Assembly (NCBI RefSeq): GCF_003790525.1
Contig: NZ_CP033635.1
DNA: 64,000 nucleotides
Strand: one strand, 5' to 3'
Source of the DNA: Escherichia coli
Lineage (GTDB): Bacteria; Pseudomonadota; Gammaproteobacteria; Enterobacterales; Enterobacteriaceae
Below, piece after piece: positions 26,483 through 49,437 of the stretch; the first letter of the stretch is position 1, and the number at the start of each line of letters is the position of its first letter. A program made the translations under genes and the position numbers. The notes under the pieces were generated by a model, which was not told where the DNA came from, searched no databases, and saw only the letters and a list, made by a program, of their open reading frames with translations.

Positions 26483-26499
26483 ACAGGGAGAATGAGTCC

Positions 26500-26904
26500 G
26501 TGAAACGATTACTGTTCGTGATGAGTGTGGCACTGGTGCTGTCGGGCTGTGCCACCTCTAAAGAAGAGCTGCTGCCTGCCGGAGAGCAGACGATGCTGGA
26601 GCTCTGGCAGGGTAAAACCGCAGGTGGCGGTCAGCGGCATGCGCTGGCCGCCCGGGAAACGTTGCGCCGTCCCCTTACGGTAACGGAGCAGCAGGGGATG
26701 AACGCGGAGGCGTACAGCTACAGCCGGACGCAGGAAAGCGAAATCAGCCAGCAGTTTCCGCGTCTGCCGAATCCCGACATGGTGATGTATGTGTTTCCGC
26801 ATCTGGCCGGCGGTACGTCGCCGGTTCCGGGCTACAGCACGGTATTTCCTTTTTACAGCAGGACGCAGTATGCGCTGCCAGGTGAGCGTACGGAGGCTCT
26901 GTAA
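26500..26904 (+). CDS. conjugative transfer region lipoprotein
   Basis: Signal peptide with lipobox LSGC. Confidence 0.5.
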   Translation: MKRLLFVMSVALVLSGCATSKEELLPAGEQTMLELWQGKTAGGGQRHALAARETLRRPLTVTEQQGMNAEAYSYSRTQESEISQQFPRLPNPDMVMYVFPHLAGGTSPVPGYSTVFPFYSRTQYALPGERTEAL

Positions 26905-29753
26905 TGACATTCTCGCTTTTCAGACGCCGTGAGGAAAAAGGTACAGCAGAGACCAGGGAACGACCGGAAGCAGAAGCGGGGGCATCTTCATCGGCCTTTG
27001 TTCCGCCCTGTCCTCCGGGGGCACAGCCCCTGCGACGTCCGGGACAGATGACCCGTGATGCTGAGGCGGCGGTTTATCATGCCGGTCCGTCGGTTATTGA
27101 TTTTCTGCCATGGGTGGAATATCTGGATGAGGAGCAGTGTCTGCTGCTTGACGACGGGGTGTCGGTGGGAGCGGTCTATTCGGTGACGCCGGCCGCAACG
27201 GAAGGGCGTACGGAAGAGCGCCTGGCGCAAATCAGGGACATGGTGGAGGATGCCCTCCAGGACAGTTTTGATGAGTACGACACGCATCCCTGGGTGGTGC
27301 AGTTCTACTGTCAGGATGAAAATGATGTGGATGCGTACCTAGACTATCTGAAGGGGTATGTGAAACCCCACGCGCAGGGAACGGCATTCACGGAGGCCTG
27401 GCTGGGTGAAATGGCCCGCCATCTCAGGGGGATTGCCCGTCCTGAGGGACTGTTTACGGACACCCTGGTCACCGGTCAGCCCTGGCGGGGACAGCAGCGA
27501 CGAACCCGGATGGTGGTTTACCGTCGTATCGGGAAGAACAATAACGATCCGATGTCGCCGGTGGCGATGCTGAACCAGGTCTGCGACCGCGTGGTGTCCG
27601 CACTGGGTGGAGCCGGTATCCGCTGTACCCGGATGAACGGTCAGCAGGTGCACAGCTGGCTGCTGCGGTTATTTAATCCGGCACCGGACTGGATTGCCCG
27701 TGAAGAGCTGTACCGGATGGCCTCACGGGTTGATCCGCGTGAGCGTGGTGATGATGTGATGCCGGTGATGACGGATTTTGCCGAGAGCCTGTGGTTTAAC
27801 CCGCCGTATTCCGATCCGGAGAACGGGGTGTGGTGGCTGGACGCCATGCCGCACTGTGCCGTGGTGGTGGAAAAGCTGCGTACGCCGCCGGAGCCGGGGA
27901 CCATCACCGGAGAGATGCCCCGTGGGGAAAAAACGGTGAATGCGCTGATGGACACCTTTCCGGAGGGAACGGTGATGTGCATGACCATCGTGGTGCAGCC
28001 CCAGGACACCCTGGAGGACCGTTTCACCCGGCTGTCGAAAAATGCGGTGGGTGAGAACACGGAATCCATCCGGGCGCGTCAGGACGTGAAGGTGGTGAAG
28101 GAGCTGCTGGGGAACCGGCACAAGCTGTACCGGGCAGGGCTCACCTTTCTTCTGCGGGCAGAGGATATGGACAGCCTGAAACGCCGGCGTGTGGAGCTGA
28201 CCACGGTGCTTCTGGGGGCTGGTCTGCAGCCGGTGCGGCCTGAGTTTGACGTGGGGCCGCTGAACAGCTGGCTGCGGGCGCTGCCGATGTGTTTTGATCC
28301 GGATACGGACAAAAAGCAGTGGTACACGCGTCTGATGTGGGTACAGCACATGGCAGGATTGTTGCCGGTGACCGGCCGGGATACGGGGACCGGACATCCG
28401 GGGTTCAGTTTTTTTAACCGGGGTGGTGATGTGCTGACTTTCGATCCGCTGAACAAGCTGGACCGTACCCAGAACGCGCATCTGCTGCTGTTCGGACCAA
28501 CGGGGGCCGGTAAATCGGCCACGCTGTGTGCTTCACTGTCGCAGGTGATGGCAGTACACCGTCCCCGCCTGTTCATTGCCGAAGCGGGGAACTCGTTTGG
28601 TCTGCTGGCCGATTATTTTGAGAGTCTCGGGCTGTCGGTGAACAAAATCAGCGTCAGACCGGGAACCGGTGTGACCCTGCCGCCGTTTGCAGATGCGCAT
28701 AAACTGGTTGAGGAAGGGCAGGATCTGCAGTGCGTGGATGAGCACTCACTGCCTGATATTGAGGATGAAGCCGGGGATGAAGGGGAGGATAAACGAGACA
28801 TTCTGGGCGAGATGGAAATCTCAGCCAGGATGATGATCACCGGGGGGGACCCGAAAGAAGAGGCCGCGCTGAAGCGTGCGGACAGGGCGATGATCCGCGA
28901 GGCGCTGCTGATGGCCACACACCGGACATACCGTGAGGGGCGGCAGATGCTGCCGGAGGATTTGCAGTCCGCCCTGTGGGAGATCTCCCGTGACAGCAGC
29001 CGTAACGATGTGCGCAATGCAAAGGCGGCGGAGATGGCGGAGTCTCTGGGGATGTTCACCCAGAAGGGGAGTTTTGAGGCGGAGTTGTTCAACCGCGAGG
29101 GCGAACTGTGGCCGGAAGCGGATGTGACGCTGATTGACCTGGGGCATCTGGCCCGTGAGGGGTATGAGGCACAGATGGCGCTGACCATGGTGTCGATGAC
29201 CAACATGATCAATAACATTGCCGAACGTGATCAGTATCTGGGGCGTGACATCGTGTTTGCGGTGGATGAGGCGCATATCGTGACGGTCAATCCGCTGCTT
29301 TCGCCGTACATGACGAAGGTTGTGAAGATGTGGCGTAAGCTGGGAGCGTGGCTGTGGCTGGCGACACAGAACCTGAAGGATTATCCGGATGTGTCGGAGA
29401 AGATGCTGAATATGGCGGAATGGTGGGTGTGTCTGACGATGCCACCGGAGGAAGTGAACAACATTGCACGCTTTAAATCACTGACGGAGGAGCAGAAAGC
29501 GGTGCTGATGTCGGCGAGTAAGCTGTCCGGCTGTTATACCGAAGGCGTGGTGCTGGCGAAGCAGATTGAGGCGCTGTTCCGTGCGGTGCCGCCAAGTCTC
29601 TATCTGGCGCTGGGCATGACGGAGAAGGAGGAGAAGGCTGAGCGGCGTATGCTGATGAAGGAACACCAGTGCAGCGAACTGGAGGCTGCGTTCCATGTGG
29701 CGCGTAAGCTGGACAGGCTGCGTGGTCTGTCGGCCATGGAGGCGGAGGTATGA
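26904..29753 (+). CDS. conjugative transfer ATPase (VirB4/TraC-like)
   Basis: 949-aa ORF; Walker A GPTGAGKS; Walker B-like IVFAVDEAH. Confidence 0.85.
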   Translation: MTFSLFRRREEKGTAETRERPEAEAGASSSAFVPPCPPGAQPLRRPGQMTRDAEAAVYHAGPSVIDFLPWVEYLDEEQCLLLDDGVSVGAVYSVTPAATEGRTEERLAQIRDMVEDALQDSFDEYDTHPWVVQFYCQDENDVDAYLDYLKGYVKPHAQGTAFTEAWLGEMARHLRGIARPEGLFTDTLVTGQPWRGQQRRTRMVVYRRIGKNNNDPMSPVAMLNQVCDRVVSALGGAGIRCTRMNGQQVHSWLLRLFNPAPDWIAREELYRMASRVDPRERGDDVMPVMTDFAESLWFNPPYSDPENGVWWLDAMPHCAVVVEKLRTPPEPGTITGEMPRGEKTVNALMDTFPEGTVMCMTIVVQPQDTLEDRFTRLSKNAVGENTESIRARQDVKVVKELLGNRHKLYRAGLTFLLRAEDMDSLKRRRVELTTVLLGAGLQPVRPEFDVGPLNSWLRALPMCFDPDTDKKQWYTRLMWVQHMAGLLPVTGRDTGTGHPGFSFFNRGGDVLTFDPLNKLDRTQNAHLLLFGPTGAGKSATLCASLSQVMAVHRPRLFIAEAGNSFGLLADYFESLGLSVNKISVRPGTGVTLPPFADAHKLVEEGQDLQCVDEHSLPDIEDEAGDEGEDKRDILGEMEISARMMITGGDPKEEAALKRADRAMIREALLMATHRTYREGRQMLPEDLQSALWEISRDSSRNDVRNAKAAEMAESLGMFTQKGSFEAELFNREGELWPEADVTLIDLGHLAREGYEAQMALTMVSMTNMINNIAERDQYLGRDIVFAVDEAHIVTVNPLLSPYMTKVVKMWRKLGAWLWLATQNLKDYPDVSEKMLNMAEWWVCLTMPPEEVNNIARFKSLTEEQKAVLMSASKLSGCYTEGVVLAKQIEALFRAVPPSLYLALGMTEKEEKAERRMLMKEHQCSELEAAFHVARKLDRLRGLSAMEAEV

Positions 29754-30136
29754 TGTGTCTGAAATACCCGAAACCGGAGGTGATGACAGAGGTCATGCCC
29801 GGGGGCAGCGTGTTTTTTCTGCCGCCGCAGGGAAAACCGGGTGTTGCGGATCTGGCGCAACCGCATCTGCAGCGCCTGCGGTCACAGCTTGAACGCAGGC
29901 TGGGTACGCTGCATCGTGTGGTGTGTCAGCCCCAGCGGGTGGGGCAGAGCAGCAGTGTGGCCGTGACAGCAGAAGGGGCGTGTGGCGAGGTGCATCTTCT
30001 GCTGACAGTAGGGGGGCATGAGAGCTGGCCCTCTGAAGAGGAATACCGGCATCCGCGCTGGTATATCCAGGTGGTGGATGCGGCCGATCTGTTCTACCTG
30101 CTGCTCTGGCTGTGTGATGGCGGGCAGGAAGCCTGA
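29750..30136 (+). CDS. hypothetical protein
   Basis: 128-aa ORF coupled to upstream ATPase gene. Confidence 0.35.
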   Translation: MMCLKYPKPEVMTEVMPGGSVFFLPPQGKPGVADLAQPHLQRLRSQLERRLGTLHRVVCQPQRVGQSSSVAVTAEGACGEVHLLLTVGGHESWPSEEEYRHPRWYIQVVDAADLFYLLLWLCDGGQEA

Positions 30137-30509
30137 AAAAACTGCCGCTACTGGCAACTGTGTCGTGGTGGCATGTTACTGGCAGGTGGTTTACGGAGTA
30201 TGGGCCCAATTCTGGCCTGCCGGAACATGCCCTTATAACCTTTAACACAGCGGTTACATAAAAAACAATGTCTTTTATGCACAGCAGTATTATGGCTGAA
30301 AGTGAAATAAAAGCGCGATATTATACTGCTTCGCGTCCGGTTGTCATTATCATGGATAGTGCGTTATGTTTATAAAGGCGTGACGGACGCTTAATTCTCA
30401 CGCAACGCACCCCTCTTAAATTTTCAGTTTCCGGTTTTGAATTTATTGCTGCTATTGGTGCTGCTTATGCGCACGCTGTAAGTCGGATATTGTCTGACGG
30501 AGGCGTACA

Positions 30510-30905
30510 ATGTACCGGATTTTCTGTTCCCTGTTTTTCCTGCCGCTGGCAGCGTCTGCTGGCACAACAATTTATACCGATTCTCAGCACCTCCCCGTTA
30601 ATACTCCCGATGGTGTCAGGGTGGTTCTGCTGGATGCACCGGAGCAGCTTCAGAACCGCTTTTTTGGCTCGTTGCCTGCTGATGCGGATAAGGCTGAAGC
30701 GCTGGTCAGGGCACGTATGCAGTCTCCCGAATGGCAGATGATGCAGGCGGAACTGGCTGCTCATTACCGCGATGTGGCACATGCCTGGTCGCTGGGCGTG
30801 AAGAAATATCCTGCCGTGGTGTTTGATGACAGTGAGGTGGTTTACGGCACCACTGATGTGGTGGTGGCCGGGAAACTCCGTACTGAGGGAGGAGTGCAGC
30901 CATGA
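30510..30905 (+). CDS. conserved ICE periplasmic protein
   Basis: Signal peptide; follows a ~370-bp AT-rich intergenic region (likely promoter). Confidence 0.45.
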   Translation: MYRIFCSLFFLPLAASAGTTIYTDSQHLPVNTPDGVRVVLLDAPEQLQNRFFGSLPADADKAEALVRARMQSPEWQMMQAELAAHYRDVAHAWSLGVKKYPAVVFDDSEVVYGTTDVVVAGKLRTEGGVQP

Positions 30906-31876
30906 TATCCCTGAAAGGTCGTCTGCGTGCCGGCGCGCTGTTACTGAGTGTGGCATCACTGCCTCTGGCGTCTGCGTCACTGAATACTGCCAGCATTATC
31001 GCCAGCGCGGCGGCACCGGACTGTATCAGCTGGCGTGTCAGCGGGATTTGTTACTGGCTTTACTGCAGCGCGTTTGGCTGCAAGGTCAGAACCTCCGTGA
31101 AGGTGACGCATTTCATCCCGGAAGTGGTTGTTTCCACCTATACGGCACCGGGTGGTAATCCCTGGAAAGAGATGTCGCTGGTCAGCCGGACGGCAGGTGG
31201 CCCGGAGAATGCCATCACTGACGGTCTGTCCGGACTGAGTGCCGGCGGGGGAAATCCGGCGGATATGAAAGCACAGGGAGAGCGGCGTTCAGCCATTCGC
31301 TTCAAATACGCAGATGCGCTGGGGCATCCGGCCACACAGATTATCGGCAGGATGGTGCCCGGATTCAGCTGTGATTCACCGGTGACGCCGGCCATGCCCT
31401 ATTTCCTGAGTACCCTGGACAGCATCGTCTGGCGAACGGGATTACCTGAATCCCTGTATCCCGAAGCACTGGTTCCCGGCAAACGCGAGATTGGCAGCCA
31501 GGCCGATAAAAACATGTGGGGGAGTGTTTATCCAAGAAGCGGTTTTGTGATGCAGACCGATGATGACCGGGCCGCGGCGGTGGTGGCCCAGCGGGTGGCC
31601 GACATTATCACGCGGACGGGGGAGCCGCATGTCTACAGGGAGGTGAAGGGCGTGAAACGTGACGGCTACTGGCCCCCGGAGGCGGTGGAGGAAAACACCG
31701 GCACCCGCAATCACAAATGGCAGCGACTGACGCCGTCAGTGTCGCGTTCCTGTGCCGTTTTCCCGGATGGTGAACACCAGGCAGCGGAGAACGGTAATGC
31801 CGCCTTTGCACTGTGGCAGCCCTACAGTTGCTGCAAAAAGCGCGGGCAGCGATTCCTTGGCAGTACGAATTTTTAA
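30902..31876 (+). CDS. conserved ICE periplasmic protein (TraU-like)
   Basis: Signal peptide; conserved Cys residues. Confidence 0.4.
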   Translation: MISLKGRLRAGALLLSVASLPLASASLNTASIIASAAAPDCISWRVSGICYWLYCSAFGCKVRTSVKVTHFIPEVVVSTYTAPGGNPWKEMSLVSRTAGGPENAITDGLSGLSAGGGNPADMKAQGERRSAIRFKYADALGHPATQIIGRMVPGFSCDSPVTPAMPYFLSTLDSIVWRTGLPESLYPEALVPGKREIGSQADKNMWGSVYPRSGFVMQTDDDRAAAVVAQRVADIITRTGEPHVYREVKGVKRDGYWPPEAVEENTGTRNHKWQRLTPSVSRSCAVFPDGEHQAAENGNAAFALWQPYSCCKKRGQRFLGSTNF

Positions 31877-31885
31877 GGAACCATA

Positions 31886-33304
31886 ATGATGAAGATGAAA
31901 ACAGGTGTGGTGGCACTGAGTGTGATGCTGTGCTGCAGTACTCCGGTGATGGCTGATCTTCTTTCCCTGCCGAAACTGAATGACAGCACGTTCGGTTACG
32001 GGAAATCCGTGGATGGCGCCGTATCTGACAAACTGTTCTATACGCTGGGTGGCGGCTCGGTGATCTCCCAGCCAGCCACGCGCAGCAACATGCAGAAGCT
32101 GGGTATGGACCTGGGCTGGAGCAGCGATCTGATGTGCGGCAACTTTGACCTGAAGACCACGGTGGGTAATCAGCTTAACGGCGTGACCGAAGGTTTTAAA
32201 AATCTGATGGGGGATGTGATTCAGGGGGCGACCGGCGCCGTTGCCAGTCTGCCGGCGATGGTGATACAGCGTGCCAATCCCGGCCTGTACGACATGATCA
32301 CCAACGGTGTGCTGCAGGCGAATGTGGCTTTCGACAAGGCGCAACTGAACTGCCAGAACATGGCAAAACGGATGATGGACTTTTCTGATCGCAGCAAATG
32401 GACGCAGGCTGCGATGCTGGAAGAGTACAAGAAGGTGGTGAACAGCGGTGACGGCGATGCGGTGAAAGGGGATGAGGCCGGGCGTCAGGCCACCGGGAAG
32501 GAGGGTAAGAAATGGATTGGCGGACAGCAGCGTGGCGGGGCAGGTCAGCCCGCCATCCGGCCGGTGCATGATCTGACAGCGGCCGGGTTTAACATGATGA
32601 ACGGTCTGCCCGTGACCAGTACGGCCAGCGTCAGTGCCGGCAACTGTAACGGCAGCGCCTGTGAGATGTTCCGGAATGCAGAAGAGGCCGCGAAGGCGGT
32701 GGTGAAGGTGCTGGGTGATCGTACCATGCGCACCTGTACGGATGCGAAGGCCTGTACCAGCGGGGATAATGAACAGCAGCAGGGAACCGTTGCAGGAACG
32801 GGGTTTGCGCCGGTGCTGGAAGAGGCGACCCGGGTGAACACGGAACAACTGGTCCGTCTGGTGAATGGTCAGGAGAAACCCACCGCGGAGAATCTGGCAA
32901 AACTGAAAACCGGCAGTCTGGCTGTCTCTGCAGGGGTGATCAATGCCCTGCGTCGTGACCCGGACAATATGTCCCTGACATCGCGGCTGGCGGGAGAACT
33001 GGCGATGGCGCATACCGTGGAAACGGCTCTGGTGATGCGCAGAATGCTGCTCACCGGGATGTCTGAGCCGTATGCGGCCGCAGAAGATGCCGCGATTCAG
33101 GAAGGCGACCGGCGTATCGCTTCACTGGACAGGGAAATCATGGCGCTGAAGAACGAGATGGAGCTGAAACGCGATCTGGCACGTAACAGCGTGCTGACCA
33201 TCATTGAACGCGACAATGAGCGCGTGGGCAGCAACCCGATGATCCAGCCTGCAGACAATACTGACAGTCGTGTCCGGGCACTGGAAACTCCGGACGGGGA
33301 GTAA
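31886..33304 (+). CDS. conserved ICE periplasmic protein
   Basis: Signal peptide MMKMKTGVVALSVMLCC; coiled-coil C-terminus. Confidence 0.45.
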   Translation: MMKMKTGVVALSVMLCCSTPVMADLLSLPKLNDSTFGYGKSVDGAVSDKLFYTLGGGSVISQPATRSNMQKLGMDLGWSSDLMCGNFDLKTTVGNQLNGVTEGFKNLMGDVIQGATGAVASLPAMVIQRANPGLYDMITNGVLQANVAFDKAQLNCQNMAKRMMDFSDRSKWTQAAMLEEYKKVVNSGDGDAVKGDEAGRQATGKEGKKWIGGQQRGGAGQPAIRPVHDLTAAGFNMMNGLPVTSTASVSAGNCNGSACEMFRNAEEAAKAVVKVLGDRTMRTCTDAKACTSGDNEQQQGTVAGTGFAPVLEEATRVNTEQLVRLVNGQEKPTAENLAKLKTGSLAVSAGVINALRRDPDNMSLTSRLAGELAMAHTVETALVMRRMLLTGMSEPYAAAEDAAIQEGDRRIASLDREIMALKNEMELKRDLARNSVLTIIERDNERVGSNPMIQPADNTDSRVRALETPDGE

Positions 33305-33308
33305 GCGT

Positions 33309-33668
33309 ATGGCGATGACTCAGGGGACAAAAGCGGGGCTGGTCCTGAAGGGCATTAAGGTGGCCGGCATGTGGCTGTCGGGCCTTATTGCCATGATGAT
33401 TCTGGCCCTCCTGGTGGCTGATACGGGCATGCGGCATACGCAGGAAGTGGAAGCATTACGGCTCTGGCTCCACGAGACACGTTTCGGATGGCTGGGGTGG
33501 CGGGTGTGCCTCTACGGTGCGCTGGCATGGGGATGCCGGAAAATCTGGCGTGCGCCGGGGTTCAGACCGGAATACCGCCGTCCCTTTGCGCGGATTTGTC
33601 TGGTCAGTGCTCTGTTTGCGTTACTTTGCGAGTACAGCATTTTTTTCGGACCGGGGGCTGAACTGTGA
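33309..33668 (+). CDS. conserved ICE membrane protein
   Basis: ATG 33309 preceded by GGGGAG; two TM helices. Confidence 0.4.
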   Translation: MAMTQGTKAGLVLKGIKVAGMWLSGLIAMMILALLVADTGMRHTQEVEALRLWLHETRFGWLGWRVCLYGALAWGCRKIWRAPGFRPEYRRPFARICLVSALFALLCEYSIFFGPGAEL

Positions 33669-35173
33669 CCACGAATAACTATCTGGAACACTTTCTGACC
33701 CTGCTGGGCTGGCTGGTGAATAACGGCCTGTGGGATCTGCTGACGGGGACGGGGCTGTTTGCCCTGCCACTGGCCTTCAGGGTTATCGGGATCTGGCTGA
33801 AAGTGCGGGAAGAGGGGGCGGATGAGGGAAATAAAGGGATGCTCTCACTGCCCCGCATTGAGCATGCCCTGTATGGTGCATTTTTTGTGATGGTGGCCTG
33901 CTGTGTGCCGCTGGTACAGGTGACGCTGGACACGCTGAAATTTGATCGCAGCCGTGCCCAGACCTGCGGTGTGTGGACACCGAAAGCACCCGGTGATACC
34001 GGGTACAGCGGGGTGATCAGCAGCCTGGGTGACAGGACAGCGGCCGCCCCGGTGTGGTGGGTGGTGGTGCATAAACTCTCCAAAGGTGTGACGCAGGCTG
34101 CTGTGGCGTCCATTCCCTGCCGGCCGGATATACGGCAACTGCGTTTTGAGGTGCAGCGGACATTCATTGCGAACCGGGCGCTGGCCGACGAGCTGCAGGA
34201 CTTCACCAACGACTGTTACTCGCTGGCGCTGTATCAGTGGAAGCAGCGTGACCAGGGGATGACGAAGGACAGGAAGCTGCTTTCGGATATCAGCTGGATT
34301 GGCAGCAGTACGTTCATGCAGGGTGACTACGGGACACTGCAGTCGAAAATGCCACGTGCGGCATTCCCGTGGAATAGCGCCCGTGACAGCGGCCGTCCGG
34401 ATACGGGACGGGGGGGTTATCCCACATGCCGTGAATGGTGGAGTGACAGTAGTGTCGGGCTGAAGAAGCGGGTGACAGAGGAAGTTGATGAAGGACTGTG
34501 GTTACGTATTTCGGCGGCAATGAAAATGCTGGGGAACGCGCAGGCGAACTACCAGGAGGAAATCATCAAACGTCTGGTGAGTCCGGCGAACCTGACCCTG
34601 TCACAGGGGGGTGAGGTGTACCGTGGCTATGGCGGTAATGCAGATATGACGGCGGCGAATGCGGTCACGCGTGCAGCAGGCACGGCGGGTTCTGCCGTTG
34701 CTAGTCTGGCAGCGTTTCCGGCGTTTGATGCGATGCGGCAGGCGCTGCCGATGGTGCAGAGTATTCTGCTGATGGCGGTGTATATCATGCTCCCGTTGAT
34801 TCTGGCGTTTGCGGCGTATGAATTCAGCACGCTGATCACACTGACGTTTGTGGTGTTTGCACTGAATTTTCTGACGTTCTGGTGGGAGCTGGCGCGGTGG
34901 CTTGACAGCTGGATGCTGACGGCCTTGTACAGTTCGGACACGCATTCCCGAGTGAACATGATGGGGCTGCAGAATACGTCGGACGATATCATCATGAATT
35001 TTGTGATGGGCACGATGTTTATTGTATTGCCTACAGTATGGCTCGGAGCGTTAACATGGGCAGGGATTAGTGTTGGAAGTATTGGAGCAGCTATTGGCAA
35101 AGGTGTATCTGACGCACAACAAGCAGGAAAACAGGAAGGAAATATTGTCAATTTATTAAGTAGGAAAAAATAA
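33665..35173 (+). CDS. traG: TraG-like conjugal transfer membrane protein
   Basis: 502-aa polytopic membrane protein; last gene of the contiguous T4SS string. Confidence 0.65.
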   Translation: MTTNNYLEHFLTLLGWLVNNGLWDLLTGTGLFALPLAFRVIGIWLKVREEGADEGNKGMLSLPRIEHALYGAFFVMVACCVPLVQVTLDTLKFDRSRAQTCGVWTPKAPGDTGYSGVISSLGDRTAAAPVWWVVVHKLSKGVTQAAVASIPCRPDIRQLRFEVQRTFIANRALADELQDFTNDCYSLALYQWKQRDQGMTKDRKLLSDISWIGSSTFMQGDYGTLQSKMPRAAFPWNSARDSGRPDTGRGGYPTCREWWSDSSVGLKKRVTEEVDEGLWLRISAAMKMLGNAQANYQEEIIKRLVSPANLTLSQGGEVYRGYGGNADMTAANAVTRAAGTAGSAVASLAAFPAFDAMRQALPMVQSILLMAVYIMLPLILAFAAYEFSTLITLTFVVFALNFLTFWWELARWLDSWMLTALYSSDTHSRVNMMGLQNTSDDIIMNFVMGTMFIVLPTVWLGALTWAGISVGSIGAAIGKGVSDAQQAGKQEGNIVNLLSRKK

Positions 35174-35221
35174 ACAAGCTTTCAGCAGGAGGAGAATAAT
35201 AATTGCTTCTCCTGCTGAATA

Positions 35222-35467
35222 TTAATATCGATCGTATGAATTAACGATGTTGATGGGACCACCTTTTGATTCAATCCAGCCCTCGCTATCTCCATATGAC
35301 CGGATTTTTACAAGTTCAATATCGTTCTTGTTTTTTTCATTGCAAGTAGAGTCTGGTCCAGCGTTAGACAAAACCGCGCAAACAGCTTTTTTCAGCAGAG
35401 AGCTGAAAGTCCATGGGGTATCAGAGGTTTTGCAACTCCACATTGCTTTTTCTGTTTCATTGGTCAT
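35222..35467 (-). CDS. hypothetical small protein
   Basis: 81-aa ORF with AGGAGG RBS 6 nt upstream. Confidence 0.4.
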   Translation of the reverse strand: MTNETEKAMWSCKTSDTPWTFSSLLKKAVCAVLSNAGPDSTCNEKNKNDIELVKIRSYGDSEGWIESKGGPINIVNSYDRY

Positions 35468-35765
35468 CGCGTGCCTCCTGTAAGTGGATAATCATCCTGG
35501 TACTATCATACGTGTTGTATGATAAATGTTCAATGCTTGCGAATCCAGGTGTAATTGTCTGATTTTGCTCTTCCATTTGTACAGTTTGTGATGTGGGGCC
35601 GGACATGTCTCAGCATGTCACAATAGCTCCAGAAACTGCCGTCTCATCGTTACTGAACATAGTGTGATTAATTTTTAAAAATGTGAAAAGAATAATCTCT
35701 CTTTTTAGTCGTCCGGCTATGTCTTATATTCTCCCTGAATCAAACCCTGTATCAGGAGAAGCTGA

Positions 35766-36338
35766 ATGAAAATATCAAAACTGGTTGTTGTGGCTACAGT
35801 ATGCTCCACGCTGAGTGCATGTTCCGTGGAAGAGATGGCTGCTGTGAACAAGAAAATCAGTGACGGTGCATTTGCTGTGACGAAAGCGCTCAATGGGGGA
35901 ACGGGCGACGCGGATAATGGTATGCCGATCCTTAACAAGCAATTGCCGCCGGAGCAGGATAAACGCGAAAATGTTATTGATGTCCCTGTTGATGTGGATA
36001 CCGCAGCAGGCCGACTGAAACGCTATTACAAGTTTTACTCGAATGATGAGGTAAATGCGATCCGCAATAACGGCACAACTGACGGAAAATGGCAGGCAAG
36101 TGCGATTATTGACAATGGGCATATCTGGGATGCGATGCCGGGCAGTTACTACAAAATGGGAGGAAACTGGCGTAAAGGCAGCTTTGATGATCACCTGACG
36201 ATTGAGGTGGAAAAGAACGGTAAGGGAAGCCGGGTCTATATCACCTATGCTTCAGCTTCTCAGGCGCATTTGCAGGCAAGTTCTCTTGAGCCTCTGTTTA
36301 AGCGAGTGAAGGATGTGGCTGAAGGAAAGGTTCGTTGA
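35766..36338 (+). CDS. hypothetical lipoprotein
   Basis: Signal peptide with lipobox LSAC; AGGAGAAG RBS. Confidence 0.5.
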   Translation: MKISKLVVVATVCSTLSACSVEEMAAVNKKISDGAFAVTKALNGGTGDADNGMPILNKQLPPEQDKRENVIDVPVDVDTAAGRLKRYYKFYSNDEVNAIRNNGTTDGKWQASAIIDNGHIWDAMPGSYYKMGGNWRKGSFDDHLTIEVEKNGKGSRVYITYASASQAHLQASSLEPLFKRVKDVAEGKVR

Positions 36339-36562
36339 TGAGCACGCCACGGGCAAGCCCTTATGGCTAAAGGAGAGGGAGATTGCCCGTGGCGGCCCAC
36401 TTTTTTTAATCATTTTTTTACCATGTTGTCCAGTATTTTTACATAAGTGAAACATCTGGTGTTGTTTTCTGTTCATCGTGCTGGAAGTTACAGGGCTTGT
36501 AATTGAACGGGGAGAGATGTAATTTACGTGCGCAAAAATTTTACTCAAGGGGGAGAAAACCG

Positions 36563-36826
36563 ATGAAACCGAATATCCATCCTGAATACCGTACTGTGGT
36601 GTTCCACGATACCAGTATCGATGAGTACTATAAAATTGGTTCGACCATCAAGACTGAACGTGTGATTGAGCTTGATGGTGTCACCTATCCGTACGTAACA
36701 ATTGATGTTTCCTCTAAGTCGCATCCTTTCTACACTGGCAAACTGAGAACTGTTGCTTCAGAAGGTAACGTGGCGCGCTTTAACCAGCGTTTCGGTCGTT
36801 TTGTTGACACCAAAAAAGGCGCATGA
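36563..36826 (+). CDS. rpmE2: 50S ribosomal protein L31 type B (zinc-independent paralog)
   Basis: [18 protein letters not shown]...[19 protein letters not shown] matches YkgM-type L31; in frame within track ORF 36503..36826. Confidence 0.8.
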
Positions 36827-36949
36827 GCAGAAATCGATCACAGGCGCGATTGATATGGAAAGGTATTGCATGAGTGTCTGAGGTCGGTTATTTTACGTTT
36901 CACAAGAAAGAAGCACTTAAACAGAAACTCACAGTCCATATTCCTTCAT

Positions 36950-36972
36950 CCCCGGTTACGGGGATTTTTTTT
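36950..36972 (+). terminator. rho-independent terminator after rpmE2
   Basis: CCCCGG-UUAC-GGGG hairpin followed by T8 run. Confidence 0.5.
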
Positions 36973-37083
36973 AGCTGTTGTCTGGGGAGGGAAGGGGGCT
37001 GTGTCGGGCTGGGAGCTGTAAGGCTGCGATTGTCCGGGTGATGTCTGAACATGCGGTATGTTTGCGTTAAACAAGGGGGGAGT

Positions 37084-37272
37084 ATGTGGATACTGATTTT
37101 CTGGCTTTCAACACCATATTCAGTGTCATCCAGTGTTGCCAGACAACCAACGCTTGCTGTTCATTCTCAGGAGTTCGCCAGCGAAAGGGCCTGCAGGAAT
37201 GCGCTGGCTGAGATGAAGAAGGTGAATGTCGGAGAACTGACCCTGAGGGGGATCTGTGTCTCAAAAGAATAG
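37084..37272 (+). CDS. hypothetical small secreted protein
   Basis: MWILIFWLSTPYSVSS signal-like start inside track ORF 37051..37272. Confidence 0.3.
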   Translation: MWILIFWLSTPYSVSSSVARQPTLAVHSQEFASERACRNALAEMKKVNVGELTLRGICVSKE

Positions 37273-37602
37273 TGGGGTAGAGGGAGCGAACCAGGCTGTT
37301 TTATCAGGATGTGATTCTGGAGAGTCCGCTCGCCGCAGTCCGGCGACCGAACGGTAGTGAGCGAGCGGACGAGGAAGCGGAACGTCACAGTTCTTTCATA
37401 ATGCACCTACGCTGTGTGGTTACATGGGTAAAGGATGAATATCACCATTCTATATCTGTTTCTGAAAAACAGTTTCGCTTGTTGCCTGTCATTGCCGGCT
37501 GGCGTTAGCATACAGAGGCGGTATTATCCCCTGTGATATTACGGGTTATTTTGTTTTGCTCTGTAAGACCTGGCCAGCTATTATGCTGGCCTTTTTTGTG
37601 GT

Positions 37603-37938
37603 TTATTGTTCGCAGTCCAGCATTGCAAATAATTTTCGTTTCTGTTCCTTCACATACTCAACATCAACAGTACAATCCAGATAACTTAACTCATCTTCTG
37701 TCCAGGCATTGATGGATTCTTTTATTCGGTGTGTCACATCCGGTGTGAGTATGTCGCGCATTTTCTCAATGGTATCCCGGCTTATTTCTCCTCGTGGAGA
37801 TTCAAGCAGAGGAATTACTGCCTGATGTCCCGGAGGGAGTATAAGACGTAATTCATATTTAAGTGTTTCGTTGAGTAAACGACAGAAAGCACTGTATTTC
37901 TCTTTCCGGGTACTGTTCATCGTTTTATTCCTTCTCAT
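37603..37938 (-). CDS. hypothetical protein (AT-rich cassette)
   Basis: 111-aa ORF downstream of the membrane protein gene, same strand. Confidence 0.4.
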   Translation of the reverse strand: MRRNKTMNSTRKEKYSAFCRLLNETLKYELRLILPPGHQAVIPLLESPRGEISRDTIEKMRDILTPDVTHRIKESINAWTEDELSYLDCTVDVEYVKEQKRKLFAMLDCEQ

Positions 37939-38015
37939 TACTGTGCATGGTGTAAGATTAAAGCGTTTTGCAAAAGATGTACAAGTTGTTTTTATCCGGA
38001 TTTAATATCATGGAC

Positions 38016-38696
38016 TCACTTTTCTTTTGTGTCAGTGGGTACTGCATTGTTTATTAGCCACGGCAATTGTTGATTACCCTGTATTTTTCGGATGTAGTTA
38101 TCAATAATATCTTTTGTTTCATCACTATTATTATAAAAAGATTCAAGTGTGCATATAAAATCATCATTTAATGCAGGTAGCAGGATTATGTTTTTTACTG
38201 TGAACCGGATATGACGATTACTCAGTGTTTTTAAATAAAGTTTCTTTCCAATAACAGGATTTACATTGAAAATATTGTAACAGATTTCCACTGTGTTTTC
38301 TGAAGGTGCGTATAATACGTATGCCGGATATTTTTTATGAAGTTTTATCAGGCAATTTATAAAGTCTAAGGAATTTGTTTGTTTTGCTTTTTCTCGCATC
38401 TTATTTACGTGTTGCGAAAAGAAATATGCTTTTGTAAATATAAAAAGAAAAATAAGCGCAGTGTTTAACAGAAATGTGATGGCAATTGTTATAAATAACC
38501 ATTTACCTGAACCTGTATTAAAGATATGGGATGAAAGATACCCACCTGTCAGCAACAAAAATATAAATAATAATGACTGCATTTTTTCCTGGTTGTTTAT
38601 TGATGATTTCAGACACAGAAATATAACAACACATGCAAAGCTCCAGAAAAATATAACAGCAAAATCCATATTATCACCTTTTGTCTGACAGTTCAT
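38016..38696 (-). CDS. hypothetical membrane protein (AT-rich cassette)
   Basis: Three N-terminal TM helices then soluble Lys/Asn-rich domain; very AT-rich codons. Confidence 0.4.
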   Translation of the reverse strand: MNCQTKGDNMDFAVIFFWSFACVVIFLCLKSSINNQEKMQSLLFIFLLLTGGYLSSHIFNTGSGKWLFITIAITFLLNTALIFLFIFTKAYFFSQHVNKMREKAKQTNSLDFINCLIKLHKKYPAYVLYAPSENTVEICYNIFNVNPVIGKKLYLKTLSNRHIRFTVKNIILLPALNDDFICTLESFYNNSDETKDIIDNYIRKIQGNQQLPWLINNAVPTDTKEK

Positions 38697-38795
38697 TTGT
38701 TGATGCTATCACGATATTCGCGATGCGGTAAATATATCAATATGTTGGTTTATTTGTGTAATACATTATTTCCCATGCGCCATAAAATCAGTCTG

Positions 38796-39070
38796 TTGAC
38801 GATAGCTTTTTTCTTTTGTTATTCTGTACCCGCTTTAACTGTCGCTTCGGCGACCAACCAATCTCCCGGTGGTCTGAGAGGGAGGCTTACGCGACCACAC
38901 TGTCATCTCAGGATGACCAGCCAATGTTCCGGCAGTCTGAGAGGAGCGCCTTCGGGTGACTGCAATATCCCATGAGCCTGGAAGAGGATGCCTATATGGC
39001 GGCAACATCCGTTTAGCCTCTGGAAACGGATGTCACCAGTAGCTGGTGACTGAGGTACGTTATTTTTACC
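38796..39070 (+). ncRNA. candidate structured RNA or ssDNA element, two modules (copy 2)
   Basis: -35-like TTGACG 38796; hairpin GTCGC-TTCG-GCGAC; modules matching copy 1 A and B; terminal hairpin GTCACCAG-TAGC-TGGTGAC + T-run near 39031-39068. Confidence 0.45.
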
Positions 39071-39818
39071 TTCGGATTACCCGTACGGTTTTGTATGTCA
39101 TGAAACTTACGAGTTTTCCTCTCGCAGAGTGGCGAAAATGCCTTATATATCTGCGTCTTAAAGATTTTCTGTCTGGCTGCATGAGCTTCTTGTGACTGTG
39201 CGCACGGCATAAGGCCATTTGAAATTTGGCTGCTTGCGTGTGTACGTGGAGTCTGAAGCTGTGCGGCGTCACTTGCGTGCGACCGGAGGGAACACCAAGT
39301 GACGCCACAACAATCTGCCCTGAAAGCAGCATCACGTAAGGCCAGCCAGAAAATCGTCGCTCGTGACCAGCGTTCTGATGACCGTTTCGTCTGTCTGACA
39401 GCGTCTTTCAGTAACGTGTCCATGCCTTTCCGGCGCGTCCGTTTTCACGGACGGCCACGCCGGAATGTCTTTTTAAACTTCATAATACATGAGAGGTAAG
39501 TGTATTAAATAGTTGAAAAAAGGAATAAATATGAAAAATCGTTCTGATGTCGGAAGGCGTCATCGTAAGATGACGGGGAGTAAAAAATCGCCCTGGTGCA
39601 CAGGTAGCGAACTCCTGTAAAAACTCAACATGTGCAAGCTCTGCTACATCGACATCAAACGAGCCAGGAAGGCGAGCAACCGCGTTACAGAGCCGTCCGT
39701 GATGACGAAAAACTAACAATATCAACGATCTGGTCTGTTTATCGGAAGGGCATCTCATGCAGTTGAACTTTCAGAACGGATGGTTTTCTGCATCTTTTTT
39801 AACAGGGGGATTGACGTT

Positions 39819-40736
39819 ATGTCCCGTAAATCGTCACGTTCCAAAGTTGAAGTCTTTCGCAAGTCATTCATCTCACTTGCCCGTGATTGTGGTGGCAGCT
39901 ACGCAACAACCGCTGACAGAATGCGAATTGCCAGATACTTTTTGAATTATTTGCAAGTAAACGGTATCAAACTTCGTCAGACGGGCAGTATTAAGACGAG
40001 GCATATTTCTGGTTATCTTCTCAGCAGGAAAGAGCAGGGGATCTCTCACCGCACAATTCAGAATGAACGGGCAGTTATGCGCGCAATTCTAGAGAAAGAT
40101 GGTCGCCTTAAAATAGCGGATCCGTCCAATCCTTTATTGAGCAATGAAGCTCTTGGACTCAGGGATACATGCCGTGATGGTAAAAAGATACCACTCTCAC
40201 AGGATGAGTTTAATAAAGCCTTCAGTAAGGTTGAAAAAAATAATCCCGGTGTTGCTGCAGTAATGCAAATTTCTTATGTTCTTGGACTGAGGACAAAAGA
40301 AGCTGTTCAGTCTTGTAAATCAGTTAACTCGTGGCTACGTGAACTTGATTCAGGGCATGATTCTCTTCTCGTTGTTTTTGGGACGAAAGGTGGAAGGCCC
40401 AGAGATACAACGATCATTAATCGTGATGCAGTGAAACATGCGCTCATTTATGCAAAAAACATTATGGATAAACAGAATGGTAAACTTATCGATTGCCCCA
40501 ATATTAAACAGGCTATAAACGTATATCGTTACCATGTAAGAAAAGCTGGTTTATCTGGAGTGAAGGCACCACATAGTATGCGTTATCATTTTTCGCAGGA
40601 AGCAAGGCAGTTTTATCGAAAAAGTGGATATGGAGATAAAGAAATTTACGCAAGGGTTTCCATGGACCTTGGTCATGGTGACGGAAGAGGGCGTTATGTA
40701 AAACAGGTCTACTTTAAAGGCGATGATGAGAGCTGA
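39819..40736 (+). CDS. tyrosine recombinase/integrase-like protein
   Basis: ATG 39819 preceded by GGGGGA; SAM-like N-terminal region; candidate catalytic residues GLRTKEA, HSMRYHF, GRGRYVKQVY. Confidence 0.5.
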   Translation: MSRKSSRSKVEVFRKSFISLARDCGGSYATTADRMRIARYFLNYLQVNGIKLRQTGSIKTRHISGYLLSRKEQGISHRTIQNERAVMRAILEKDGRLKIADPSNPLLSNEALGLRDTCRDGKKIPLSQDEFNKAFSKVEKNNPGVAAVMQISYVLGLRTKEAVQSCKSVNSWLRELDSGHDSLLVVFGTKGGRPRDTTIINRDAVKHALIYAKNIMDKQNGKLIDCPNIKQAINVYRYHVRKAGLSGVKAPHSMRYHFSQEARQFYRKSGYGDKEIYARVSMDLGHGDGRGRYVKQVYFKGDDES

Positions 40737-40739
40737 TAT

Positions 40740-41480
40740 TTAAAATGAATCCGGAGGATATGTGTTTTTCGCGAACTTATTAATTTCTGTAATAAGAATT
40801 TCTGATGCACGATTACACATGCTCTCATTAAAGTATCCTATATGGCATTCATGGATGCGGCAATTTAGTTTTCTGGATAGCCATCTGTTTGCCTCGTTAC
40901 GGGATATATTTGTTTTTTGCTGATAGCTGTCAAAAAGTTTACGCACTTGTGCTCTGAGTATTCTCAAATTTTCTTTAGCTGGAGTACCTAATGGTCTCCC
41001 TGAATTTTTATGACATCCAACCCATGCATTGCATGGGCTGCAAATCCAGTAATATTTGTTTTCTGTAGTGGGTGTCGTGGAAAATGGCATAAGTGCACCT
41101 TTTCTGAGTTGTGCCTTATTACCACAGTAAGTGCAGATTACAATTGGACGAACATCTGCAATATTCAGTGCTGCATAAGTAAGACGTTCATTTTTCATCA
41201 TGTTTCGTTTTCCACAGTCAGTGAGAATATGCTTTATTGTGTCTAATTCTTCTCGGAGTATTTTTGAACGGACGCCAGTTCGATAACGCTGTTGAAAGTA
41301 GAGCTCAATATGGCGTAGTTTTATACTATTTATTGATTTTATCTGTATATTGGATTCTTTAAGAAATGAAGCAAATCTTCTGGCTCTCCCCATATATACC
41401 AGTATGTCTTCTGGTGTCGGGGCGCATGCTTTAGCTATTTTGATTAGCTCATCTTTTAATTTTTTGTATTTCGATTTCAT
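40740..41480 (-). CDS. integrase N-terminal-like domain fused to zinc-ribbon domain
   Basis: N-terminal ~100 aa resemble N-terminus of 39819 gene product; C-terminal CTYCG...CSPCN...C..H cluster; convergent, stops 3 bp apart. Confidence 0.45.
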   Translation of the reverse strand: MKSKYKKLKDELIKIAKACAPTPEDILVYMGRARRFASFLKESNIQIKSINSIKLRHIELYFQQRYRTGVRSKILREELDTIKHILTDCGKRNMMKNERLTYAALNIADVRPIVICTYCGNKAQLRKGALMPFSTTPTTENKYYWICSPCNAWVGCHKNSGRPLGTPAKENLRILRAQVRKLFDSYQQKTNISRNEANRWLSRKLNCRIHECHIGYFNESMCNRASEILITEINKFAKNTYPPDSF

Positions 41481-41593
41481 CCTGATATCTCTCTTTAAGG
41501 TTCATTAAGAGTGTTACTGAGTAAAAAAATATCAAATTAAGTATTTATTGTCATTCAGTTGTAGCTTCTCAGCCGCTCCACGACAATAACAAC

Positions 41594-41890
41594 TTGAAGT
41601 TTTATGCAGTTTGTGCTTACAATTTAAACGCTAACTTGTCGCTTCGGCGACCACCAATGTTCCATGTGGCCTGTGAGGAACGCCTTCGGGTGGCCCACGT
41701 CGCTCCGGCGACCACCAATGCTTCATCTGACCTGTGAGGAGCGCCTTCGGGTGGTCAGTTTTACACCTCCTGAGCCTGAAAGGAGCTGTGCGTGCTGAAG
41801 GGATATGTTCCCGGAAGTACGGGCAAATCTGCGCACCTTTGAGAGCAGATGTCACTGCGGTTTTCCGTGATGATGAAGGCTTTTTTATCA
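41594..41890 (+). ncRNA. candidate structured RNA or ssDNA element, two modules (copy 3, divergent)
   Basis: TTGAAG (41594) and TACAAT (41618) promoter-like pair; two modules with stems GUGGCC/GGCCCAC and CUGACC/GGUCAG around UGUGAGGA-CGCC-UUCG-GGUG; T-run near 41881. Confidence 0.4.
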
Positions 41891-42009
41891 CTGTATGACC
41901 TGAGTTATCTCTGGTCTTTAAGCGCATCGTGTTATCGCGTTGATGTGTTCACCTGACGGATTTTCCAGTCCGTCAGGGCGGAACGTCCGTCTTTTATCCG
42001 GAGGTTCCG

Positions 42010-42411
42010 ATGTTTATTCCACTTCTGTTTCGCGCAGAGATGCGCCTGACACCTTTCTTTCAGCGACTCAGACAACGTCTGTGTTATCCGGTGAGTCGTG
42101 TTCATACACAACATCCCTGGTCTTCTCCACAGTTGCGGCACCTTTACTGCACGCCGTGGTTTGTTAACGCCACCGGCAATCTGGCAGTCCGTGCCTGCAT
42201 TCTTTCCATTGACGGTTCTTTGCGACACTGCTTTGAGTTCCGTGAAGGCTCTCACAGCCGTGAATACCGTTTCTGGTTTGAGGCGCTTCCTTTGTCGGTA
42301 CTGCGTTTTAACGCTTTTACCGGTCGAATATCCGATCGCCGTACACTCTCTGCTGCCTCCCGTATGGCCGCGCAGCTTACTTCCTTTCGCTATCGCTTCG
42401 GTTTGCGCTGA
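42010..42411 (+). CDS. hypothetical Arg-rich protein
   Basis: ATG preceded by the same 18-nt TTTTATCCGGAGGTTCCG as rpn; antisense ORFs also open here. Confidence 0.35.
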   Translation: MFIPLLFRAEMRLTPFFQRLRQRLCYPVSRVHTQHPWSSPQLRHLYCTPWFVNATGNLAVRACILSIDGSLRHCFEFREGSHSREYRFWFEALPLSVLRFNAFTGRISDRRTLSAASRMAAQLTSFRYRFGLR

Positions 42412-42563
42412 AGCTGTTTGAGGTCGTTATGACCGTCATTTTCTCTACGAGCAGCGTTGTCTGATCGCGCCATTCAGAACGCGATGACAAAGCTGATTTT
42501 TCCTTAACCCGTCCGGGAGCGCTTCCGTTCGGGGAACGGTCTCTCTGTTTCTGGAGATTGTTT

Positions 42564-42950
42564 ATGGGACTCGATATTTTTTTCCTTGGGCGTGATCGTG
42601 TTTGTGTTACCGACGCAGTGGTATCGGTACCGGAAACGCGGGAAGTGGGGTACTTTCGCAAGGTTAACCCACTGATTGCCTGGTTTGAGAAGCATTGTGG
42701 ACCGCTTGAAAATGCCGTGGAGCGTCCGGTTTCCAGAACGGAACTGGAGGCACTACTGAGCGATCTTGAATGCCTTACGCCGGAGAACTGCCGGGAATTC
42801 TTCCCCACAACAGAAGGATTCTTTTTTGGCTCTCAGGAGTATGACCAGTATTACTGGAAGGATGTTGAGGACGTGAAGTCGTGGGTCAGACGCACGCTTG
42901 ATTCGTTTGATTTTGAACGAAAAATACTGTTGCTCTGGGCATGGTGGTAA
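42564..42950 (+). CDS. hypothetical protein
   Basis: ATG 42564 preceded by GGAGA; acidic. Confidence 0.4.
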   Translation: MGLDIFFLGRDRVCVTDAVVSVPETREVGYFRKVNPLIAWFEKHCGPLENAVERPVSRTELEALLSDLECLTPENCREFFPTTEGFFFGSQEYDQYYWKDVEDVKSWVRRTLDSFDFERKILLLWAWW

Positions 42951-43036
42951 CTATTTCTCAGTCCTTGTTTTTAACCATGTGATTATTCGCAGAGGCCCGA
43001 CAGCTCTGGCCTGCTTTTATTCCGGAGAATGAGATT

Positions 43037-43228
43037 ATGCAAATAAGTGCAGAAACTCGCGCTGTTTTACGTCACTACAGACAGATCATTAACGCCAGAC
43101 GGCGTGAAGATGGCATGAAAGCTCTCAGCACGCCGCAAATCGTTGATGAGATCTGTGAGTTTATGCTCAGCCAGCCAGCAGTGTATCTGGGGGGGCAGTT
43201 CATCATGCAGAAGGCCAGAACAAGATAG
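43037..43228 (+). CDS. hypothetical small protein
   Basis: 63-aa ORF with GGAGAA upstream. Confidence 0.3.
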   Translation: MQISAETRAVLRHYRQIINARRREDGMKALSTPQIVDEICEFMLSQPAVYLGGQFIMQKARTR

Positions 43229-43368
43229 CTGTCTTTGTTCATGGCTTTTCAACAGACCGTTATGCTTTCGCCACCACATGGTAAGGCGGGTCTGATTTTA
43301 CTGTTAACCGTACGGTTCACTCTCATACCGTACGGTGGGAGTGAACCCTTTTCATTAAGGACACTCTC

Positions 43369-43878: not shown

Positions 43879-44074
43879 CTCACAGCCATGAGGGCGCATA
43901 TAAGCCGTGTACTGGCGGATGTGATTTCAGCATACATTCTGCTGGTTTTTTTACCGTTGTTGACAATTTTAATCATCGCGGATGAACAACCTGAACTCTG
44001 TTGTTCACCGCCCGGAGGCATCGTTCCTTCGGACGGTGTGCTCTTTCATCAGAAAGAATCAGACAGGGGGTTTT

Positions 44075-44434: not shown

Positions 44435-44447
44435 TGTTTTCCACATT

Positions 44448-44488: not shown

Positions 44489-44501
44489 CAGGAGAAATTT
44501 C

Positions 44502-49435: not shown

Positions 49436-49437
49436 GA

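Follow-up and report, generated by a model that had tools for sequence, protein, structure and literature searches.

ICEs of the PFGI-1/SPI-7 class carry their relaxase and integrase genes at the tRNA end, tens of kb from traG (~36 kb in the element analysed here). Among the described members, ICEEc2 and ICEKp2 are presented in PMC6761156 as PAPI-family ICEs at tRNA-Phe. In ICEPan of Pantoea ananatis, TraG belongs to conserved block CR-4 and TraI and the integrase to CR-5 (PMC4458695), and in HAI2 of Pectobacterium atrosepticum the putative relaxase ECA0613 and int ECA0614 have consecutive locus tags, suggesting adjacency, and the island uses a phe-tRNA site (PMC4814525). Both elements sit at tRNA-Phe and keep the TraG block apart from a last block holding TraI and the integrase, with variable islands between the two.

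We analysed a 64-kb stretch of Escherichia coli DNA (hereafter the window) and compared it with these systems. ICEEc2, the pKLC102/PAGI-2-family element of APEC strain BEN374 (Roche et al. 2010), is similar in the description given by PMC6761156 and PMC4458695: it too has an E. coli host, a tRNA-Phe site and a T4SS of the PAPI/pKLC102 type, and its type IV pilus has been implicated in mating. Its cargo is expected to differ from that of the window. PFGI-1, PAPI-1, pKLC102, ICEclc and ICEHin1056 have the same T4SS families (TIGR03745-03759, TraG_N, the TraC-like ATPase and TraD) and the same TIGR03760 relaxase class, whereas the Pseudomonas MPF-G ICEs integrate at tRNA-Lys or tRNA-Gly, unlike the window's relatives at tRNA-Phe, and their protein identity to the window's element is expected to be low. 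A likeness to the SPI-7 family of Enterobacteriaceae (SPI-7 of Salmonella Typhi and its relatives) is apparent from the PGAP names of several window-equivalent genes, namely 'SPI-7-type island replicative DNA helicase' and replication proteins of the STY4528 and STY4534 families. tRNA-Phe is the site of these ICEs too, and they share with the window's relatives a shufflon-bearing pil operon and a MOBH relaxase adjoining the integrase. Compared with SPI-7, the window's element has its pil operon in inverted orientation close to the right end, and presumably the element also differs in being without the Vi locus or the SopE phage. ICEPan and HAI2 differ in belonging to other genera and carrying other cargo, and the ICEPan pil operon lies in block CR-2. 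We read the window as an internal 64-kb slice of an ~80-kb ICE of the PFGI-1/pKLC102/SPI-7 class (ICEEc2-like, with an MPF-G T4SS and a MOBH relaxase) located at an E. coli tRNA-Phe, with the relaxase, integrase and tRNA cut off, and we give this reading a probability of roughly 0.9.

The conjugation genes conform to the class. An MPF-G (PFGI-1/ICEHin1056-type) operon runs on the + strand from PilL2 to TraG_N (13863..35173), as identified by Pfam, NCBIfam and the PGAP names in 99%-identical relatives. It contains the MPF-G gene set that marks the class (TIGR03745-03759, a TraC-like ATPase, a TraU-like protein and TraG_N) together with the type IV coupling protein TraD (18678-20831, +; TraG-D_C and TrwB_AAD_bind, PGAP name traD). 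The TraC-like ATPase is encoded at 26904-29753 (+; Pfam TraC_F_IV), the TraU-like protein at 30902-31876 (+; Pfam TraU, annotated as TIGR03756 in relatives) and the TIGR03755 protein at 31886-33304 (+; NCBIfam TIGR03755, 548 bits), and matches to DUF4400 and DUF3438 were also obtained in the operon. Its last gene (33665..35173, +) encodes a mating-pair-stabilisation protein with a TraG_N domain (PF07916, E=3.5e-77), in which residues 9-478 of 502 match profile positions 2-455 of 462 in Pfam, so that the gene is intact and full-length; the TUM1886 homolog has 507 aa. The maintenance/replication module typical of the class (parA, dnaB, parB, topB, ssb) was likewise recovered, with topB at 8229-10247, ssb and the STY4528/STY4534 genes placed in the window by PGAP transfer, and parA, dnaB and parB immediately left of the window-equivalent stretch in relatives.

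The first-pass annotation had the T4SS gene string stop at 35173, which holds, and had the conjugation module end at TraG, which is correct for that string but not for the module as a whole, since TraF and a type IVb pil operon follow at 54.9-64 kb. The conserved backbone resumes with a TraF-like conjugal transfer gene (54870..56072, −; PF13729, E=5.6e-68). Beyond it, the type IVb conjugative pilus operon (58751..64000, −; Pfam Shufflon_N, Peptidase_A24, PilS, T2SSF and T2SSE) encodes the PilV shufflon adhesin, a prepilin peptidase, a transglycosylase, the PilS pilin, PilR (T2SS-F family) and the PilQ ATPase, whose gene runs past the window end. Such an operon with its shufflon recombinase is a further hallmark of the PFGI-1/pKLC102/SPI-7 class.

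Between these two conserved parts lies a variable accessory region (35174..54869; G+C 0.35-0.50), recognised by its mosaic identity and indels relative to TUM1886 and TUM9803 and by Pfam and PGAP. It holds hypothetical genes, an L31 paralog, STAXI/EFASI motifs, an Integrase_1 gene, ArdA, LPD29, DUF1281, a type III restriction-modification system and IS and toxin-antitoxin (TA) remnants. The genes that directly follow traG had been described as small and unrelated, and indeed neither the 81-aa gene at 35222..35467 (−), hypothetical in relatives too, nor the 190-aa hypothetical gene at 35766..36338 (+), 95.7% conserved in TUM1886, gave a family match in Pfam or NCBIfam. They are followed by a cargo gene for a type B ribosomal protein L31 paralog (36563..36826, +; PF01197, E=1.8e-24, with the PGAP name in relatives) and, further on, by the antirestriction gene ArdA (43369..43878, +; PF07275, E=2.3e-26). 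The type III restriction-modification system (46520..51474, −) comprises Res at 46520-49435 and Mod at 49438-51474, which match ResIII/RE_endonuc and N6_N4_Mtase/T3RM_EcoP15I_C in Pfam, and has 35% G+C; it is found in some relatives only and TUM9803 is without it, while the cargo of TUM1886 at the same spot includes HNH/EcoRI-like methylase/CcdAB and iha insertions. The earlier label of E. coli-like cargo fits this region poorly, given its low G+C (35-48%) and its mobile-element accessory genes (ArdA, type III restriction-modification, STAXI/EFASI).

It had also been proposed that a relaxase/integrase module once followed traG and that the insertion of cargo displaced or replaced it. The fall in G+C from ~0.59 to 0.44-0.50 across ~35 kb is sharp, T4SS genes are no longer recognisable beyond 35.2 kb, and the region after traG is an indel hot spot between relatives, all of which could be taken as traces of such an event. 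However, TraG is full-length, the junction contains no truncated gene fragments, and in relatives the relaxase and the ICE integrase never adjoin traG but always lie at the tRNA end, as they do in the published relatives with their separate conserved traG and traI-int blocks. In relatives whose cargo after traG differs (TUM1886, TUM9803), traI-int is without exception still at the far end. A scan for terminators and promoters at the traG junction gave the same counts as shuffles. Displacement is very improbable, this class giving no reason to expect a relaxase or integrase beside traG, and the abrupt end of the T4SS at 35173 with its drop in G+C is a normal boundary between backbone and variable cargo and not the scar of lost mobility genes.

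The window had been reported to hold no recognisable integrase, which proved incorrect, as two genes for tyrosine recombinases are present. One, beside the shufflon (57208..58461, −; PF00589, E=7.4e-23; PGAP 'site-specific integrase'), is Rci-like, with an annotated homolog of 374 aa, and judging from its sequence and its position adjoining the PilV shufflon gene it is probably Rci. The other (39780..40736, +) is an Integrase_1-family tyrosine-recombinase-like gene matching PF12835 (E=1.3e-51) and PF12834 (Phage_int_SAM_2). Upstream of it are a STAXI motif (38901..39060, +; Rfam RF01728, 89 bits) and an EFASI motif (39539..39661, +; Rfam RF02957, 77 bits), and a second STAXI copy of the accessory region follows at 41637..41808 (+; RF01728, 83 bits). 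Scores of 139, 89 and 83 bits for STAXI and 77 bits for EFASI all pass the Rfam gathering scores (40.5 for STAXI, 51.2 for EFASI). The Rfam description, as quoted in PMC12370729, has EFASI follow STAXI and precede an integrase gene, and this is the order seen here. STAXI/EFASI elements have been proposed to function as single-stranded DNA.

The strong Pfam match and the upstream STAXI/EFASI motifs, known companions of integrase genes, could suggest that the Integrase_1 gene is the functional integrase of the element and uses a non-tRNA site. Against this, the gene lies >35 kb from both ends of the homologous ICEs. These elements are bounded by two tRNA-Phe repeats, with another integrase next to attR, and in a comparison with PDB sequences the Integrase_1 protein matches solved tyrosine recombinases no better than E ~0.8, which is not significant. 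We consider this possibility scarcely credible. Nor does the protein show similarity to the tRNA-side Int of the relatives. As a candidate for the ICE integrase the gene was rejected, being mid-element while a different integrase adjoins the tRNA in relatives, and neither tyrosine-recombinase gene of the window is the ICE's tRNA-site integrase.

The remaining absences reported by the first-pass annotation were borne out. When all large or unannotated ORFs of the window, antisense ones included, were scanned with Pfam, no relaxase family was found, and tblastn against the window with TraI, the UvrD-like helicase and Int from the family itself gave a best E of 0.19. ARAGORN and Rfam detected no tRNA in the 64 kb, and sequence comparison revealed no tRNA-Phe or att-like sequence >12 nt in the window.

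Where the window lies within the element follows from collinearity. The tRNA-Phe (pheV) ICEs of many E. coli genomes, many of the closest from chicken/APEC strains, are collinear with it at 92-99.8% identity. The ICE of TUM1886 aligns end to end within this range, record position 909004 corresponding to window position 1 and 978383 to position 64000; TUM9803 carries two related ICEs. PilR and an AcaB-like protein have exact-protein matches in many relatives, none of which is the same as the window all the way through, and contig L018, one of eight encoding a window-identical PilR, is 100% identical to positions 61090-64000. No complete E. coli genome compared matched the window at 100% identity over its whole length, a search of the GTDB representative genomes with PilQ gave a 3.3-kb MAG contig and nothing else, and the window's 276-aa repeat protein has no entry in the exact-protein index. 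The left window edge coincides with the 3' end of parB, ~5 kb inside the left end of the relatives, and the right edge falls inside pilQ. The layout of the class begins with attL, parA-dnaB-parB and topB-ssb, continues with the T4SS operon ending in traG and the variable region, passes to the other strand for traF and the rci/shufflon/pil operon, and closes with a uvrD-like helicase, traI, int and an attR located within tRNA-Phe. Framed by parB and pilQ, the window cuts off the relaxase, the integrase and the tRNA/att site. In extended coordinates, the relaxase would be predicted at ~71.5-73.1 kb, the integrase at ~73.1-74.2 kb and the tRNA/att site at ~74.4 kb.

In relatives, genes for a UvrD-like helicase, a MOBH relaxase and a tyrosine integrase do come after the remaining pil genes, together with tRNA-Phe, 6-10.5 kb past the window end. 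In TUM1886 these are the UvrD helicase at 984414-985922, TraI at 985915-987444, Int at 987487-988587 and tRNA-Phe at 988792-988867. The attL of this strain lies ~50 bp upstream of parA, where 50 nt repeat the 3' end of tRNA-Phe at 92% identity. TraI scores 193 bits against TIGR03760 ('ICE relaxase, PFGI-1 class'; cutoff 161 bits) and also matches Pfam TraI_2 and TraI_2_C; in all relatives checked the relaxase gene lies 7.5 kb past the window-equivalent end. The module was also found in Br_112_kylling, CM2, TUM9803 and the more distant STEC2018-553, with the arrangement of Int and tRNA-Phe repeated in CM2, Br_112 and STEC2018-553; TUM9803 is the only inspected copy without tRNA-Phe after it. 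No close relative checked is without a relaxase gene, though one copy is truncated, and nearly all have the integrase and tRNA-Phe. The first-pass annotation had offered as an alternative that these functions lie outside the window, and this is now supported by the presence of the expected arrangement in the flanks of relatives, as distinct from the source genome itself.

Decay of individual copies does occur. Strain 64.1 has only UvrD and a truncated TraI, with integrase and tRNA absent from that place, and ssb is a pseudogene in the relative TUM9803, as are rci and res in TUM1886, raising the possibility that the ICE of the source genome is a non-mobile remnant whose relaxase and/or integrase was deleted or truncated beyond the window. 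We regard this as quite unlikely, in view of the full block retained by ~35 of 36 close relatives and of the backbone genes in the window, every one of which is an intact ORF. Moreover, all eight contigs encoding a window-identical PilR have UvrD and a TraI_2 gene past the pil operon, the latter cut by the locus end in each case. The UvrD/TraI/Int/tRNA-Phe block is also carried by each of the 15 top matches to window 30-40 kb. On these sequence comparisons, the absence of relaxase and integrase is an effect of the window's edges and not a loss. That the source genome carries the end module of the relatives, and that the element is able to move, we infer from those relatives.

A more speculative view, which we think unlikely, is that the region after traG, instead of being passive cargo, may be an organised early-entry anti-defence island consisting of STAXI/EFASI, Integrase_1 and ArdA. 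The transferred single strand would then drive expression, and the Integrase_1 protein would act in ICE establishment or cargo capture. Separately, and at the same low level of confidence, the source copy may be a remnant lacking a relaxase that another, related ICE mobilises in trans, which is thinkable because of the two such ICEs in TUM9803.

Under the preferred reading of the window as an internal slice of a tRNA-Phe ICE, the element type and its layout are already known and the absence is an ordinary finding: a 64-kb window starting inside an ~80-kb element usually misses the relaxase and integrase because of their position at the tRNA end. There is no evidence that the cargo has crippled the element, and its mobility gene set is probably complete.

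The TraG_N protein gene at 33665–35173 is full length (plus strand; PF07916, E=3.5e-77, residues 9–478 of 502) and is the last gene of a plus-strand MPF-G conjugation operon, a system of the kind typical of genomic islands. This operon also encodes a TraD coupling protein (18678–20831), a TraC-like ATPase (26904–29753), a TraU-like protein (30902–31876; TIGR03756 by annotation of relatives), a TIGR03755 protein (31886–33304; 548 bits) and DUF4400 and DUF3438 proteins. In 99%-identical relatives the NCBI pipeline names the T4SS genes as TIGR03745–03759 'integrating conjugative element' proteins and a 'PFGI-1 class' PilL2. The first-pass annotation had the T4SS string stop at traG and give way to unrelated small genes, and this boundary is real: past 35173 the G+C content is 0.44–0.50, against about 0.59 before it, and two genes without family assignment (35222–35467, minus strand; 35766–36338, plus strand) are followed by a paralog of type B ribosomal protein L31. 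That the whole conjugation module ends there holds for the T4SS operon but not for TraF (54870–56072, minus strand) or a type IVb pilus operon (PilV, prepilin peptidase, PilS, PilR and PilQ), which lie further on. The pilus operon occupies the minus strand, opposite to the traG operon, between 58.7 kb and the end of the window, where base 64000 interrupts the PilQ gene. A 749-bp segment (58394–59142) is inverted relative to the homologous ICE of E. coli TUM1886 and has the same orientation as in that of TUM9803, a pattern that fits a shufflon inversion next to pilV.

We found no tRNA or tmRNA gene in the window with ARAGORN and no tRNA with Rfam at gathering thresholds, and nothing in the window matched the tRNA-Phe/att sequence of homologous ICEs over more than 12 nt. 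No relaxase family emerged when all large, unannotated or antisense ORFs of the window were scanned with Pfam, and tblastn with the nearest relative's relaxase, UvrD-like helicase and integrase reached a best E value of 0.19 within the window. The reported lack of a relaxase and of a tRNA gene is thus borne out. The reported lack of any recognisable integrase is not, since an Integrase_1 plus Phage_int_SAM_2 protein is encoded at 39780–40736 (plus strand; PF12835, E=1.3e-51) and a Phage_integrase-family recombinase at 57208–58461 (minus strand); the latter is probably Rci because it adjoins the PilV shufflon gene. In a further protein (40740–41480, minus strand) the SAM-like N-terminal domain of an integrase is joined to a DUF3268 zinc finger, with no other integrase part. 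None of the three is similar to the relatives' ICE integrase. The genes at 39780–40736 and 40740–41480 form a convergent pair that is kept in relatives.

Three STAXI motifs (10617–10770, 38901–39060 and 41637–41808) and one EFASI motif (39539–39661), all on the plus strand, exceed the Rfam gathering thresholds. Downstream of these motifs are the STY4534/ssb genes, the Integrase_1 gene and a hypothetical-gene/ArdA block, and the order of the STAXI motif at 38901–39060, the EFASI motif and the Integrase_1 gene matches the documented one. STAXI alleles are swapped between positions among relatives, in keeping with the published idea of single-stranded DNA action; a leading-region single-strand promoter would be a candidate role.

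A 36-bp tandem repeat (6556–7382; 23 copies, 89% matches) fills an ORF (6552–7385) that would encode a 12-aa repeat protein; an exact-protein look-up of the 276-aa product returned no record. Copy number varies between relatives. With the STY4528-family replication protein gene on one side and the AcaB-like/topB genes on the other, the repeat may represent an iteron- or oriV-like array instead of coding sequence. A segment of roughly 400 bp is imperfectly repeated in direct orientation (12977–13385 and 13407–13767, 85% identical) around the 3′ end of an Rpn-family (Transposase_31) gene and the next RpnC/YadD-like ORF.

The window is collinear with chromosomal ICEs of many complete E. coli genomes and identical to none. 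Against TUM1886 (NZ_CP128970.1; 92–99.8% identity, the gaps being indels) base 1 corresponds to 909004, at the 3′ end of parB, and base 64000 to 978383, within pilQ. That ICE starts with parA at 904072, then dnaB and parB; past the pil operon come a UvrD-like helicase (984414–985922), a 'TraI domain-containing protein' (985915–987444), a tyrosine integrase (987487–988587) and tRNA-Phe (988792–988867), which adjoins yqgA and speC, the pheV locus. Its TraI matches Pfam TraI_2 and TraI_2_C and NCBIfam TIGR03760 ('integrating conjugative element relaxase, PFGI-1 class'; 193 bits, cutoff 161), which identifies it as the cognate MOBH relaxase. Some 50 bp upstream of parA there is a 50-nt repeat of the tRNA-Phe 3′ end (92% identical), and the two form an attL/attR pair enclosing an element of about 85 kb. 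With the window coordinates extended, we predict the helicase at about 70.0–71.5 kb, the relaxase at 71.5–73.1 kb, the integrase at 73.1–74.2 kb, tRNA-Phe at 74.4 kb and attL some 5 kb to the left of base 1.

The same end module lies past the pil operon in Br_112_kylling, CM2, TUM9803 and the more distant STEC2018-553 (about 92% identity over the right part). All eight contigs with a PilR identical to the window's carry UvrD and a TraI_2 gene on the far side of the pil operon, and one contig is 100% identical to window 61090–64000. The best 15 matches to window 30–40 kb are all (15/15) among genomes with the UvrD/TraI/Int/tRNA-Phe block, which about 35 genomes carry with at least 98% identity across its helicase/relaxase part. 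An intact relaxase and integrase, in the expected arrangement, were found just outside the corresponding region in all close relatives checked except strain 64.1 (NZ_CP059917.1, 4661461–4664021), whose right end is limited to the UvrD-like helicase plus a truncated TraI and shows neither an integrase nor a tRNA at that place. This ICE looks like a decayed copy; with one such case against about 35 genomes with the block, decayed copies exist but are rare, and decay of the source copy itself is improbable. TUM9803 (NZ_CP135671.1) has two related ICEs of this family (920621–978799 and about 5110248–5178210), one with its relaxase/integrase allele at tRNA-Phe and the other without an annotated tRNA gene after the integrase. 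Published layouts agree: ICEKp2 and the E. coli element ICEEc2 belong to the PAPI family of ICEs and sit at tRNA-Phe (PMC6761156); ICEPan has TraG in conserved block CR-4 and both TraI and integrase in terminal block CR-5 (PMC4458695); and HAI2, at a phe-tRNA gene, has a putative relaxase (ECA0613) and int (ECA0614), whose consecutive locus tags suggest adjacency (PMC4814525).

The cargo, called E. coli-like in the first-pass annotation, is not especially so: it has 35–48% G+C and comprises typical mobile-element accessories, among them ArdA antirestriction (43369–43878), a type III R-M system (46520–51474), DUF1281 and LPD29 genes, and the STAXI (38901–39060 and 41637–41808) and EFASI motifs. 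TUM1886 has insertions near window 36.8 kb (HNH endonuclease, EcoRI-like methylase, CcdAB) and 30.1 kb (iha), and TUM9803 is without the type III R-M, IS and TA segment of window 46.5–54.9 kb; in every one of these variants traI-int remains at the tRNA end. This argues that the missing relaxase, integrase and tRNA reflect where the 64-kb window was cut, as the suggestion that they lie outside it had allowed, a reading to which we give a probability of roughly 90% from comparison with relatives; the alternative that cargo displaced or replaced the mobility genes carries very little weight. The original observation, made in a known ICE family, is correct but trivial, and the traG end of the T4SS operon is an ordinary junction between a conserved backbone block and a variable region of that family.
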